IMG/VR virus record: IMGVR_UViG_2879765931_000005 | From: a virus | Lineage: Duplodnaviria > Heunggongvirae > Uroviricota > Caudoviricetes | Length of the DNA stretch: 36,219 nt | Reading direction: 5' to 3' (one strand) | Shown here: piece after piece, positions 11,789 through 32,609 of the stretch | How positions within the stretch are numbered: the stretch's first letter is position 1 | Layout of the letters: every line of letters starts with the position of its first letter | Made by a program: the position numbers and the translations under genes | Notes under the pieces: model-generated | Told to the model about the DNA's origin: nothing | What the model saw: the letters and a program-made list of their open reading frames with translations, nothing else | Databases searched by the model: none

Positions 11789-12662
11789 ACAATGAACTCC
11801 CCGATGATATTGAGCTGCTTAAAGCCATGTTGCGTAAGCAACAGAGTCGGCTTCGACAGTATGCCTGTCAGGTCGCGGGCTATGAGCAGGAAATTGAACG
11901 GCTGAAAGCGCAACTCGACAGGTTGCGTCGTATGTTGTTCGGCCAGAGTTCAGAGAAAAAGCGTCATAAGCTTGAAAATCAGATCCGACAGGCAGAAAAA
12001 CGACTGTCGGAACTGGAAAACCGGCTGAACACAGCCAGAAATCTTCTGGAAGATGCATCGTCAGTCACAGATTCACCTGACACCAGTCCCCCGTCAGAAA
12101 ACCCGATCGCCAGTAAGCCTGAATTCCCGGGACGAAAATCTTCACGAAAACCGCTGCCGGCAGAACTTCCCCGGGAGACACATCGCCTTCTGCCTGCTGA
12201 AACCAGTTGCCCGGCCTGTGGAGGTGTTCTGAAAGAAATGGGGGAAACAATCTCAGAGCAACTGGATATCATTAATACCGCCTTTAAAGTTATCGAAACC
12301 ATACGTCCCAAACTGGCCTGTAGCCGGTGTGATGTCATCGTTCAGGCACCACTTCCTCCTAAACCGATCGAACGCGGTTATGCCAGTGCAGGGTTACTTG
12401 CACGGATCCTGGTCAGCAAATATATGGAACATATCCCTTTATATCGCCAGTCAGAAATATACGCGCGACAGGGCGTGGAGCTGAGCCGTAATACCATGGT
12501 GCGCTGGGTATCAGAAATGGCAGACAAACTCCGTCCTCTGTATATAGCGCTGAATGACTATGTTCTGGAGGCAGGAAAGGTGCACGCAGATGACACTCTG
12601 AGGTAGCCTGAGTTTAACGGACACTCCTTCCTGAAATAGAATGGCATCAGAAGGAGCTAATA

Positions 12663-12965
12663 ATGAGCAGAAAAACCCAACGTTACTCTAAAGAGTTCAA
12701 AGCCGAAGCTGTCAGAACGGTTCTTGAAAATCAACTTTCGATCAGTGAAGGCGCTTCCCGATTATCTCTTCCTGAAGGCACTTTAGGACAATGGGTTACC
12801 GCCGCCAGAAAAGGGCTCGGTACTCCTGGTTCCCGCACGGTGGCTGAACTGGAATCTGAAATTCTGCAACTGCGTAAGGCGTTAAATGAAGCTCGCCTTG
12901 AGCGAGATATATTAAAAAAAGCAACAGCGTATTTTGCACAGGAGTCGCTGAAAAATACGCGTTAA
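12663..12965 (+). CDS. IS600 OrfA
   Basis: 100 aa MSRKTQRYSKEFKAEAVRTVLENQLS... Confidence 0.9.
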   Translation: MSRKTQRYSKEFKAEAVRTVLENQLSISEGASRLSLPEGTLGQWVTAARKGLGTPGSRTVAELESEILQLRKALNEARLERDILKKATAYFAQESLKNTR

Positions 12966-13000
12966 TCGAACAATGGCGACAACAATTTCCCATTGAAGCG

Positions 13001-13819
13001 ATGTGTCAGGTATTTGGTGTATCCAGGAGCGGTTATTACAACTGGGTACAGCATGAACCCTCAGACAGAAAACAAAGTGATGAGCGGCTAAAACTGGAGA
13101 TTAAGGTGGCACATATCCGCACTCGCGAAACATATGGAACCCGGCGGCTCCAGACGGAGCTGGCAGAGAATGGCATCATCGTTGGTCGTGACCGACTGGC
13201 ACGTCTTCGTAAGGAGCTGAGGCTACGCTGTAAGCAGAAACGCAAGTTCAGAGCGACTACGAACCCGAACCACAATCTGCCAGTTGCGCCAAATCTGCTG
13301 AACCAGACGTTCGCTCCTACAGCACCAAATCAAGTCTGGGTGGCGGACCTGACGTATGTTGCCACACAGGAAGGATGGTTGTACCTCGCTGGCATCAAAG
13401 ATGTTTATACGTGCGAAATTGTCGGCTACGCCATGGGAGAGCGCATGACAAAAGAGCTGACAGGTAAAGCCCTGTTTATGGCGCTCAGGAGCCAGCGCCC
13501 ACCTGCCGGGCTAATCCACCACTCTGATCGAGGTTCACAGTACTGCGCATACGATTACCGGGTCATACAGGAGCAGTCTGGTCTGAAAACATCAATGTCG
13601 CGTAAAGGTAACTGTTACGACAATGCTCCGATGGAAAGCTTCTGGGGAACGCTGAAAAATGAGAGCCTGAGCCACTATCGTTTTAATAACCGGGATGAAG
13701 CCATCTCAGTAATACGGGAATACATTGAGATTTTCTACAATCGTCAGCGTCGTCACTCTCGTCTGGGGAATATCTCCCCGGCAGCCTTCAGGGAAAAATA
13801 TCATCAGATGGCTGCTTAA
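13001..13819 (+). CDS. IS600 OrfB (DDE transposase domain, first-ATG coordinates)
   Basis: 272 aa with IS3-family DDE region (HSDRGSQYC...). Confidence 0.9.
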   Translation: MCQVFGVSRSGYYNWVQHEPSDRKQSDERLKLEIKVAHIRTRETYGTRRLQTELAENGIIVGRDRLARLRKELRLRCKQKRKFRATTNPNHNLPVAPNLLNQTFAPTAPNQVWVADLTYVATQEGWLYLAGIKDVYTCEIVGYAMGERMTKELTGKALFMALRSQRPPAGLIHHSDRGSQYCAYDYRVIQEQSGLKTSMSRKGNCYDNAPMESFWGTLKNESLSHYRFNNRDEAISVIREYIEIFYNRQRRHSRLGNISPAAFREKYHQMAA

Positions 13820-15170
13820 AAAAAGAACAAATGGTAGTGTCCGCTATTGCCAGTACACCTCACTCCGGTGAAAGTACTGGCCCCGGGGAACGGAAAGACG
13901 AAAACGGGTCGTCTGTGGGTATACGTCAGGGATGATCGTAATGCGGGTTCATCCCTGCCGGCAGCCGTCTGGTTCGCGTATTCGGCAGATCGCAAAGGAG
14001 AACATCCGCAGCTCCACCTGGCAAAGTATCAGGGCGTACTGCAGGCTGATGCCTATGCAGGTTATAACGTACTGTACGAAACGGGCCGGGTGAAGGAAGC
14101 CGGGTGCCTGGCCCACGCCCGCCGAAAAACCCATGACGAGGATGTGCGCCGTCCGACAGAAATGACTCAGGAAGCGCTCAGACGGATAGCAGAGTTATAC
14201 GACATAGAAGCGGAGATACGTGGCAGTCCGGCAGAGGAACGGCTTGCAGTCAGAAAAGCCAGAAGCGTCCAGTTGATGCAATCGTTGTACGACTGGATAC
14301 AGTTGCAGAGGAAAACGCTGTCGAAACATGCGGAGATGGCGAAGGCGTTCGACTATATCCTGAATCACTGGAATGCGCTGAACGAGTTCTGTCGTGACGG
14401 CTGGGTGGAAATAGACAACAACATCGGTGAAAACGCGTTACGATCGGTGGCGGTTGGAAGAAAAAATTATCTCTTTTTCGGCTCAGACAAGGGAGGAGAA
14501 AGTGCGGCGATCATCTACAGTCTGCTGGTCACCTGCAAACAGAACGAAGTGGAGCCGGAGGACTGGTTGCGCGAAGTGATCGAGAAGCTCAATGACTGGC
14601 CGTCGAACCAAGTGCATGAACTGCTGCCCTGGAACTTCTCGTCTGTAAAATAATCCTTACGCTACGTACTTCTCGGGGCGCTTACTCATTACGCAAGGCT
14701 GTTGCAGTTGCTATTGGTGGTGGGGCTATTGCCATAGCGTCTGTGCTCATCACTGGCCCAGGTGGTAACGATGGTCTGGAAGGTGTCAGCTACATACCAT
14801 ACAAAGATATCGTTGGCGTATGGACTGTATGCCACGGACACACCGGAAAAGACATCATGCTCGGTAAAACGTATACCGAAGCAGAATGCAAAGCCCTCCT
14901 GAATAAAGACCTTGCCACTGTCGCCAGACAAATTAACCCGTACATCAAAGTCGATATACCGGAAACAACGCGCGGCGCTCTTTACTCGTTCGTTTACAAC
15001 GTGGGCGCTGGCAATTTCAGAACATCGATGCTTCTTCGCAAAATAAACCAGGGCGATATCAAAGGCGCATGTGACCAGCTACGTCGCTGGACATATGCTG
15101 GAGGTAAGCAATGGAAAGGGCTGATGACCCGTCGTGAGATTGAGCGTGAAGTCTGTTTGTGGGGGCAGCA

Positions 15171-30893: not shown

Positions 30894-30953
30894 ATAGTGG
30901 AGACAGTATGGACTTACCTTCTTTACCTTCTCTTTCTTGGTAATGACTCCAAC

Positions 30954-31457
30954 TTACTGATAGTGTTTTATGTTCAGATAATGCCCGATGACCTTGTCAT
31001 GCAGCTCCACCGATTTTGAGAACGACAGTGACTTCCGTCCCAGCCTTGCCAGATGTTGTCTCAGATTCAGATTATGTCGCTCAATGCGCTGAGTGTAACG
31101 CTTGCTGATAACGTGCAGCTTTCCCTTCAGGCGTGATTCATACAGCGGCCAGCCATCCGTCATCCATACCACGACCTCAAAGGCCGACAGCAGGCTCAGA
31201 AGACGCTCCAGTGTGGCCAGAGTGCGTTCCCCGAAGACGTGCGCCACAACCGTCCTCCGTATCCTGTCATACGCGTAAAACAGCCAGCGCTGACGTGATT
31301 TAGCACCGACGTAGCCCCAATGTTCGTCCATTTCAGCGCAGACAATCACATCACTGCCCGGTTGTATGCGCGAGGTTACCGACTGCGGCCTGAGTTTTTT
31401 AAGTGACGTAAAACCGTGTTGAGGCCAACGCCCATAATGCGTGCACTGGCGCGACAT
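30954..31457 (-). CDS. insB: IS1 InsB (copy 2)
   Basis: 167-aa ORF identical to copy 1. Confidence 0.9.
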
Positions 31458-31651
31458 CTGACGCCATTCATGGCCATATCAATGATTTTCTGGTGCGTAC
31501 CGGGCTGAGAGGCGGTGTAAGTGAACTGTAGTTGCCATGTTTTACGGCAATGAGAGCAGAGATAGCGCTGATGTCCGGCAGTGCTTTTGCCGTTACGCAC
31601 CACGCCTTCAGTAGCGGAGCAGGAAGGACATCTGATGGAAATGGAAGCCAC
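31376..31651 (-). CDS. insA: IS1 InsA (copy 2)
   Basis: 91 aa; one substitution relative to copy 1 (G/R). Confidence 0.9.
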
Positions 31652-31706
31652 GCAAGCACCTTAAAATCACCATCATACACTAAATCAGTAAGTTGGCAGC
31701 ATTACC

Positions 31707-32609
31707 CGTTAATCGAACAATGGCGACAACAATTTCCCATTGAAGCGATGTGTCAGGTATTTGGTGTATCCAGGAGCGGTTATTACAACTGGGTACAGCA
31801 TGAACCCTCAGACAGAAAACAAAGTGATGAGCGGCTAAAACCGGAGATTAAGGTGGCACATATCCGCACTCGCGAAACATATGGAACCCGGCGGCTCCAG
31901 ACGGAGCTGGCAGAGAATGGCATCATCGTTGGTCGTGACCGACTGGCACGTCTTCGTAAGGAGCTGAGGCTACGCTGTAAGCAGAAACGCAAGTTCAGAG
32001 CGACTACGAACCCGAACCACAATCTGCCAGTTGCGCCAAATCTGCTGAACCAGACGTTCGCTCCTACAGCACCAAATCAGGTCTGGGTGGCGGACCTGAC
32101 GTATGTTGCCACACAGGAGGGATGGTTGTACCTCGCTGGCATCAAAGATGTTTATACGTGCGAAATTGTCGGCTACGCCATGGGAGAGCGCATGACAAAA
32201 GAGCTGACAGGTAAAGCCCTGTTTATGGCGCTCAGGAGCCAGCTCCCACCTGCCGGGCTAATCCACCACTCTGATCGAGGTTCACAGTACTGCGCATACG
32301 ATTACCGGGTCATACAGGAGCAGTTTGGTCTGAAAACATCAATGTCGCGTAAAGGTAACTGTTACGACAACGCTCCGATGGAAAGCTTCTGGGGAACGCT
32401 GAAAAATGAGAGCCTGAGCCACTATCGTTTTAATAACCGGGATGAAGCCATCTCAGTAATACGGGAATACATTGAGATTTTCTACAATCGTCAGCGTCGT
32501 CACTCTCGTCTGGGGAATATCTCCCCGGCAGCCTTCAGGGAAAAATATCATCAGATGGCTGCTTAAAAAAAGAACAAATGGTAGTGTCCGCTATTGCCAG
32601 TACACCTCA
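31707..32609 (+). mobile_element. IS600 copy 4, 5'-truncated (first ~361 bp replaced by IS1)
   Basis: Begins inside the orfA 3' end (CGTTAATCGAACAATGGCGAC...) and ends with the normal right terminus ...TACACCTCA. Confidence 0.85.
31748..32566 (+). CDS. IS600 OrfB (copy 4; orfA mostly deleted)
   Basis: 272-aa orfB present; the 344-aa ORF 31532..32566 in the track is a read-through artefact from IS1 antisense. Confidence 0.8.
   Translation: MCQVFGVSRSGYYNWVQHEPSDRKQSDERLKPEIKVAHIRTRETYGTRRLQTELAENGIIVGRDRLARLRKELRLRCKQKRKFRATTNPNHNLPVAPNLLNQTFAPTAPNQVWVADLTYVATQEGWLYLAGIKDVYTCEIVGYAMGERMTKELTGKALFMALRSQLPPAGLIHHSDRGSQYCAYDYRVIQEQFGLKTSMSRKGNCYDNAPMESFWGTLKNESLSHYRFNNRDEAISVIREYIEIFYNRQRRHSRLGNISPAAFREKYHQMAA

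Follow-up and report, generated by a model that had tools for sequence, protein, structure and literature searches.

Successive IS600 insertions, an IS1-linked deletion and recombination in relatives at an ipaH-bearing phiP27-like prophage of Shigella flexneri type

The virus record IMGVR_UViG_2879765931_000005 holds 36,219 nucleotides of DNA (the window, meaning the whole stretch analyzed) in which four copies of the insertion sequence (IS) IS600 interrupt a prophage, raising the question whether these copies arrived one at a time or were rearranged by recombination, and what they did to the phage genes around them. The answer we reach is that a phiP27-like prophage carrying ipaH was very probably immobilized by successive, separate IS insertions and an IS1-linked deletion, with recombination between copies in sister lineages. 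Relatives were retrieved by exact-protein look-ups across assemblies (fetched loci carry L numbers). The closed chromosome CP026871.1, a single 4.49-Mb contig, is 100% identical to the window over 33.7 kb (3868-37524 of the record span fetched); the stretches compared (L013, L017, L018, L039 and L053) cover window position 3868 to the window end and beyond, and extrapolation from L013 places the window at about 3,370,664-3,406,882. By its sequence, the window represents a prophage of hybrid phiP27-like/lambdoid type in a chromosome of Shigella flexneri type, the species being taken from IS insertions common to named S. flexneri strains.

Self-BLAST and a repeat search of the window detected one 1264-bp element in four copies and one 768-bp repeat in two. 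The larger element is IS600, and its copies are referred to as c1 to c4:

12599-13862, plus strand: IS600 c1, full length (1264 bp), with the duplication CTC at 12596-12598 and 13863-13865
22188-23450, minus strand: IS600 c2, 1263 bp, inverted, with the duplication AAG (plus strand) at 22185-22187 and 23451-23453
24318-25581, plus strand: IS600 c3, full length, with the duplication ATG at 24315-24317 and 25582-25584
31707-32609, plus strand: IS600 c4, IS600 positions 362-1264, with the right flank GTT inside a DUF4376 gene remnant

Taking a length of about 1264 bp and at least 95% nucleotide identity to a reference as the mark of IS600 (IS3 family, IS3 group), we found c1 to be 99.6-99.8% identical, at 100% coverage, to annotated IS600 on Shigella virulence plasmids. 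The terminal repeats are imperfect and have TG..CA ends (TGAGGTAGCCTGAG..GGACAC versus TGAGGTGTACTGGC..GGACAC). The first reading frame, orfA, encodes 100 residues with PF01527 (HTH_Tnp_1), and orfB encodes 272 residues with PF00665 (rve), PF13683 and PF13333. orfB lies in the -1 frame with respect to orfA (frame offset 338 nt), with a predicted A7G slippery site, TTAAAAAAAG, at IS positions of about 314-323. Both reading frames are retained in c1, c2 and c3; c4 has lost the left terminal repeat and orfA, and its orfB frame is still open. A sequence-only reading of this stretch had described the four copies and the duplications CTC, AAG and ATG, and each of these factual statements is borne out by the self-BLAST, the repeat search and the flanks.

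The three duplications were read directly from the flanks: CTC on both sides of c1, AAG (plus strand) on both sides of c2 and ATG on both sides of c3. The chance of a matched duplication is 1/64 each and about 4e-6 for the three together. Excising each IS600 together with one copy of its duplication restores three genes. Removal of c1 gives a 533-536-residue IS66-family transposase, the tnpC product of ISSfl3, whose gene is split at 12598/13863. The target of c2 is the head-completion gene (PF05521; 21923-22187 plus 23451-23605), which again encodes a protein of 138 residues, and that of c3 is the tail-terminator gene (PF23840; 24092-24317 plus 25582-25922), which encodes 187 residues when restored. 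The sites can also be seen empty, that is, as target loci without the insertion. A 99.9%-identical prophage lacking these insertions (L006, UGBG01000002.1) has a single AAG and a single ATG, and phage phiP27 is colinear with the window across the c2 and c3 sites. For c1, excision with one CTC leaves a 2734-bp ISSfl3 that is colinear with a pINV copy and has 3 mismatches. The target of c4 is the DUF4376 tail-fibre gene, uninterrupted in L006; of its duplication only the right copy, GTT, remains.

Since the empty sites have single targets, c1 to c3 are simple insertions and not chance repeats or recombination products. Matched duplications at all three, together with colinearity with phiP27, also indicate that no net inversion or deletion has taken place between copies in the window. 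IS3-family elements move by copy-out/paste-in transposition and duplicate 3 bp of target, and each IS600 arrival here would have been its own event of this kind. The argument for separate transposition events thus holds, as each copy has its own matched 3-bp duplication, a verified empty site and a different distribution among relatives. The related claim that each copy splits a different gene stands as to three different genes being split; it does not extend to three phage genes, as the target of c1 is tnpC of ISSfl3, making c1 an IS nested in another IS:

10685..14685, plus strand: ISSfl3 (IS66 family; tnpA, tnpB, tnpC), 2734 bp without c1, with the 8-bp duplication TCATTACG

ISSfl3 itself interrupts codon 6 of a signal-arrest-release (SAR)-type endolysin gene (ATG at 10668). 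It has terminal repeats GTAAGCG.. and the domains PF01527, PF05717, PF03050, PF13005 and PF13817, and its left 1913 bp are 100% identical to annotated ISSfl3.

The four copies are not identical. Their alignment has 16 differing columns, in keeping with the few substitutions and the 1-bp difference in A-tract length noticed earlier. Nine substitutions are private to c2, six of them within 49 bp, and its A-tract is shorter by one base. We considered whether the A-tract change sits at the programmed-frameshift site, where it would bear on an orfA-orfB fusion, and rejected this: the tract begins at the orfB stop codon, at about IS position 1220, so that coding is unaffected and the 100-residue orfA and 272-residue orfB are kept. 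The c2-specific substitution patch is absent from every other fetched locus.

The fourth copy differs from the others in that it ends at an IS1. The 768-bp repeat detected in the window corresponds to this element and to a second one in the integrase gene:

30939-31706, minus strand: IS1 at the deletion, 768 bp, with proper terminal repeats; flanks CTCTTTCTT and CGTTAATCG, no target duplication
4277-5044, minus strand: second IS1, with the 8-bp duplication TTTTTTTC on both sides, splitting the prophage integrase gene

Both have the features of IS1 (768 bp, GGTAATG..CATTACC ends, insA/insB with Zn_ribbon_InsA and DDE_Tnp_IS1) and they differ from each other at 2 positions. The IS1 at 30939-31706 joins codon ~10 of the DNA-circularization gene to IS600 position 362. 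As reported earlier, c4 lacks its beginning and abuts an IS1 without a duplication; the loss is exactly 361 bp and the flanks of the IS1 differ. Where the IS1 end meets IS600, three bases match (TAC) and the next does not, too little to count as a meaningful microhomology. In L006, the DNA-circularization gene runs on past the point equivalent to window position 30938 and is followed by baseplate genes, tail fibres and an uninterrupted DUF4376 gene. The distance in L006 from that point to the GTT target of c4 is exactly 8,159 bp, and this whole stretch is missing from the window, as are one GTT copy and IS600 positions 1-361. A simple insertion of IS1 duplicates 8-9 bp of its target, and the lack of a duplication marks this IS1 as the product of a secondary event, and not as a non-member of the IS1 group.

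What was that event? Adjacent deletions promoted by IS1 are classic E. coli genetics, and the sequence-only reading proposed that one of these removed the distal tail genes. The loss itself is confirmed by the comparison with L006; as to mechanism, an adjacent deletion is consistent with the sequence, and recombination between two IS1 copies would give the same product. In that alternative, one IS1 would have entered the DNA-circularization gene and a second, in the same orientation, position 361 of c4, after which homologous recombination deleted the interval. The IS1 left behind would then have one half of each original duplication beside it and would seem to have none, exactly as observed. 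IS-by-IS recombination is demonstrated in the same prophage (described below), and IS1 is abundant on Shigella chromosomes, the fetched loci alone containing several copies. However, this route needs three events against two for an adjacent deletion, no two-IS1 intermediate was found among the approximately 20 relatives in which the IS1 region was read, and IS1 is a classic promoter of adjacent deletions. We regard the two-IS1 route as possible, though the less likely of the two. On grounds of parsimony, one-step intramolecular transposition of IS1, producing an adjacent deletion, appears somewhat the more probable origin of this junction.

Comparison with related strains had been proposed as a way to date the IS1 deletion, and the comparison does so in relative terms. 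The IS1/IS600 junction is present in approximately 20 relatives read past the 160-residue open reading frame (ORF) that precedes it. The exceptions are L006 and L020, the latter because a deletion between c3 and c4 removed the IS1. This distribution leads us to infer that the IS1/c4 junction was formed before any of the non-3a forms split from one another.

The same relatives show what recombination between IS600 copies can do. Of the 10 places shown for the tape-measure protein, 8 have window sequence up to 12598 joined to sequence from 25582 onward through a single IS600. In L003-L005, L007, L009, L010 and L012 this IS600 has the left flank of c1 (..GACACTC) and the right flank of c3 (ATGAGCG..), that is, CTC|IS600|ATG, as expected of recombination between c1 and c3. 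Most of the S. flexneri genomes sampled are of this recombinant form. The loss amounts to 11,719 bp and comprises the 3' half of ISSfl3, lysis genes, terminase, portal, capsid and the site of c2. These genomes include S. flexneri ATCC 29903 (2a), strain 1205 and AUSMDU00010535 (names from PMC9455713). One locus, L008, appeared at first to be a further rearrangement; this was rejected, as it is merely N-masked and the length of its N-run fits the structure of L012. A derived single-nucleotide polymorphism (SNP), 10352T, is common to all c1 x c3 genomes and fits, weakly, a single origin of the deletion; the test is weak because sites inside ISSfl3 conflict, and these conflicts probably come from gene conversion among IS copies.

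A second product is found in CP026776.1 (L020), where an IS600 with the left flank of c3 and the right flank of c4 (ATG|IS600|GTT) replaces 7,028 bp of tail genes along with the IS1. When compared with its sister L019, this IS600 is a chimera whose alleles change from c3 type to c4 type somewhere in IS positions 1026-1230. Recombination between copies had been named as a possible cause of deletion or inversion of the intervening segments. The hybrid flanks of the c1 x c3 and c3 x c4 products bear out the deletion part; no inversion isoform was seen among the fetched relatives, and c2 is present in one assembly only.

Two other fetched loci have IS-associated rearrangements of this region. At about position 13085 of L031 (UAUS01000001.1, also L032), a full-length IS600 flanked by GTT and GTT stands in place of the truncated c4, and its left flank is foreign, coming from another ipaH island. 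It looks like the outcome of recombination between c4 and a distant IS600 that would have removed the whole prophage to the left. CP055138.1 (L051/L052) has two copies of the block from the tape measure to ipaH, which lie about 24 kb from each other across the record origin and may represent an IS-flanked segmental duplication.

A third type of deletion, common in S. flexneri, removes window positions ~12597-21446, including c1. It occurs in CP034060.1 (1b), LR213452.1 and many drafts, and was seen in L011, L019-L024, L026 and L027 (sites 12594-12598 and 21432-21449). The junction reads GATGAC[AC]CGTTCG, with 2 bp of microhomology. Its left endpoint is 3-5 bp outside the left end of IS600, and its right endpoint falls just after CCCGTACACCAACAAA, which contains the heptamer GTACACC, a match to the right terminus of IS600. 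One interpretation is that an IS3-family transposase joined the true left end to this pseudo right end, after which the donor was resealed and the IS was excised with 7.6 kb of adjacent DNA. We consider such a footprint conceivable and on the whole unlikely; ordinary illegitimate recombination is the alternative.

Could some of the IS600 copies be artefacts of assembly, that is, repeats misplaced or collapsed? This concern applies above all to c2, whose junction ORF is found in CP026871.1 only, and the 261-residue ORF at the right junction of c1 likewise matched, as an exact sequence, CP026871.1 only. A misplaced repeat, however, would not come with an exact 3-bp duplication of a target present only once in L006 and phiP27, nor would it explain the nine private substitutions and the indel of c2; every copy has substitutions of its own. 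Independent closed genomes also show the two junctions of c1, the two of c3 and the one between IS1 and c4, and the source is one 4.49-Mb contig. We therefore think an assembly artefact very improbable. Weaker still, to the point of being hardly credible, is the proposal that c2 and c3 came as a composite transposon: an inverted IS600 pair does bracket a short segment, but the outer flanks are AAG and ATG with no common duplication, each copy has its own matched duplication, the bracketed 867 bp are colinear phage DNA with 96.8% identity to phiP27 and many genomes have c3 without c2, and on the flanks, the colinearity and the c3-only genomes we rejected it.

The presence and absence of the copies among relatives suggests in what order they came. 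Two S. flexneri 3a assemblies, that of strain 888048 (CP066809; PMC8549364) and a second one, are about 0.3% divergent from the window; ISSfl3 and c1 are present in them, whereas c2 and c3 are both absent. Both junctions of c1 are found in independent 3a assemblies, L046 and L048. The 3a lineage also has a fusion of the prohead protease and capsid genes that is seen in the window. Both junctions of c3 recur in many S. flexneri assemblies that lack c2, and in SRR6249539 the head region is present with an intact head-completion gene. The integrase-gene IS1 is absent from L019 and L020, which have a single target and an integrase of 346 residues. We infer that ISSfl3, c1 and the protease-capsid fusion are the oldest, because they are common to the 3a lineage, that c3 came after the 3a split and that c2 came last and is private to the CP026871.1 genome. 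By the same kind of look-up, the undeleted (long) form of the prophage appears rare, because the exact large-terminase protein is found in 4 contigs, compared with 3,397 index blocks for the tape-measure protein and 388 for the ORF at the left junction of c3, index blocks being not genomes and their counts relative only. Short-read contigs of two other long-form strains, GCA_013976445.1 and SRR6249539 (L015, L016 and L025), all break at window positions ~20679-20683 in the capsid gene, which suggests a further repeat or IS insertion in those strains.

Put together, the history runs as follows. Sequence and empty sites show that ISSfl3 entered the endolysin gene, c1 ISSfl3 tnpC, c4 the DUF4376 tail-fibre gene, c3 the tail-terminator gene, c2 the head-completion gene and one IS1 the integrase gene. 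An IS1-linked event then took away 8,159 bp holding baseplate and tail-fibre genes, along with 361 bp from the start of c4. In sister lineages, homologous recombination between direct repeats has removed either the head module, through c1 x c3, or the tail module, through c3 x c4. The window is thus, on this reading, the least-deleted surviving stage of a stepwise decay in which ipaH was kept. Several points weigh against this reading. The order of events is drawn from few SNPs and parsimony, and the ISSfl3 sites conflict; the dating of the IS1 deletion covers non-3a forms only; both c2 junctions come from a single assembly. A donor identical to c2 was not found in the plasmid collection or in the E. 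coli complete genomes, the best match being 99.1-99.2%. Nor did look-ups through the 160-residue ORF and a 59-residue ORF beside ipaH uncover any intermediate of the IS1 event, whether an IS1 bearing a duplication at one of the two sites or a full-length c4 in its original context.

The prophage region, already annotated in GenBank, adjoins tRNA-Asn, mtfA and tRNA-Ser. Its early and late-regulatory part is lambdoid (DUF968, RusA, Q and a four-tRNA cluster) and is followed by a holin/SAR-endolysin/Rz lysis cassette. The four tRNA genes (Met, Lys, Thr and Gly) lie at 9851-10160, downstream of Q. Genes for stx, sought because phiP27 is an Stx2e phage, are absent, and only 380 bp separate the tRNA cluster from the holin gene, too little to hold them. 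From the capsid gene to the tape-measure gene, the head-tail module is 96.5-96.8% identical to phiP27. At its 3' side lie the DUF4376 remnant, ipaH, a methyltransferase gene and a tail-fibre assembly remnant:

14686..22187, plus strand: head segment between ISSfl3 and c2, with the endolysin remainder, Rz, HNH, small and large terminase, portal, fused prohead protease-capsid, connector and the 5' part of the head-completion gene
25582..30938, plus strand: phiP27-like tail module, with the 3' part of the tail terminator, DUF2635, sheath, tube, chaperone, tape measure and the 160-residue ORF
32610-33086: remnant of the DUF4376 tail-fibre gene, holding the right flank of c4
33266..34909, minus strand: ipaH-family E3 ubiquitin ligase gene, intact, 547 residues, prophage cargo
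35028..35044, minus strand: MxiE-box match GTATCGTTTTTTTACAG, perfect against the consensus, 119 bp upstream of ipaH

The site at 35028-35044 was named from GTATCGTTTTTTTACAG, which we take to be the MxiE-box consensus; the scan gave 1 match where 0.01 is expected by chance. The match suggests that the ipaH cargo would still be under type III secretion control.

Three lesions of the prophage lie beyond the range covered by the sequence-only reading: the ISSfl3 insertion in the endolysin gene, the integrase-gene IS1 and the protease-capsid fusion. In the last of these, the prohead protease and major capsid genes are joined at 20453/20454 as one ORF of 576-588 residues, owing to a deletion of about 160 bp (161 bp compared with L006; 158 bp compared with phiP27). 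At the window edge, positions 1-1178 hold a further IS3-family element (orfA 1-303, orfB 330-1169). Its neighbours are tRNA-Asn and, on the minus strand, a truncated integrase gene (1276-2025); L031 and L032 have the same element, 99% identical, next to a different ipaH island.

The elements described here are known ones. IS600, IS1 and ISSfl3 are catalogued, show all the defining features for which we looked, and act here through no new mechanism. IS expansion, IS-mediated genome reduction and prophage decay are features of Shigella genomes, and IS expansion, IS-by-IS deletion and the retention of ipaH on crippled prophages are standard and already known Shigella biology. The value of the locus is that public genomes hold it in three stages: the IS-free prophage (L006), the IS-laden, undeleted parent (the window) and two deletion products. 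ipaH and its MxiE box are intact throughout, illustrating how Shigella fixes phage-borne virulence cargo while the phage is destroyed. Features such as c2, c3 and the c1 x c3 junction, which a strain either has or lacks, provide ready lineage markers for S. flexneri. To what was seen from the sequence at first, the analysis adds the nested target of c1, the two recombinational deletions in relatives, the relative dating of the copies and a caveat on the mechanism of IS1.

Compared with IS600 on pWR100, pCP301 and Shigella chromosomes, the copies in the window have the same length of 1264 bp, identity of 99.6-99.8%, TG..CA ends, orfA and orfB in frames 0 and -1, the A7G site and 3-bp duplications. 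Unlike the reference, c2 is a ~1% divergent allele with an A-tract shorter by 1 bp after orfB, and c4, a remnant truncated at its 5' end, is unable to move on its own. The IS1 junction resembles IS1-promoted adjacent deletions in E. coli in that the IS1 is kept at the junction without a duplication, with its original neighbour on one side and distant DNA on the other, whereas here the mechanism is read from the end product only. In comparison with phiP27 (NC_003356), the connector, tail terminator, sheath, tube and tape-measure region are colinear and 96.5-96.8% identical, and both have a tRNA cluster downstream of Q (in phiP27 ileZ and argO, then stx2e). In contrast to phiP27, the window lacks stx genes and has ipaH as its cargo, the early region and lysis cassette differ, the baseplate and fibre genes are deleted, and the protease and capsid genes are fused. 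The wider pattern is that of IS-driven decay in Shigella, with many IS1, IS600 and ISSfl-type copies, prophages inactivated while ipaH is kept, and IS-IS deletions. What sets this locus apart from that pattern is that it preserves the parent, in the window, along with two recombinant products whose crossover scars can still be identified.

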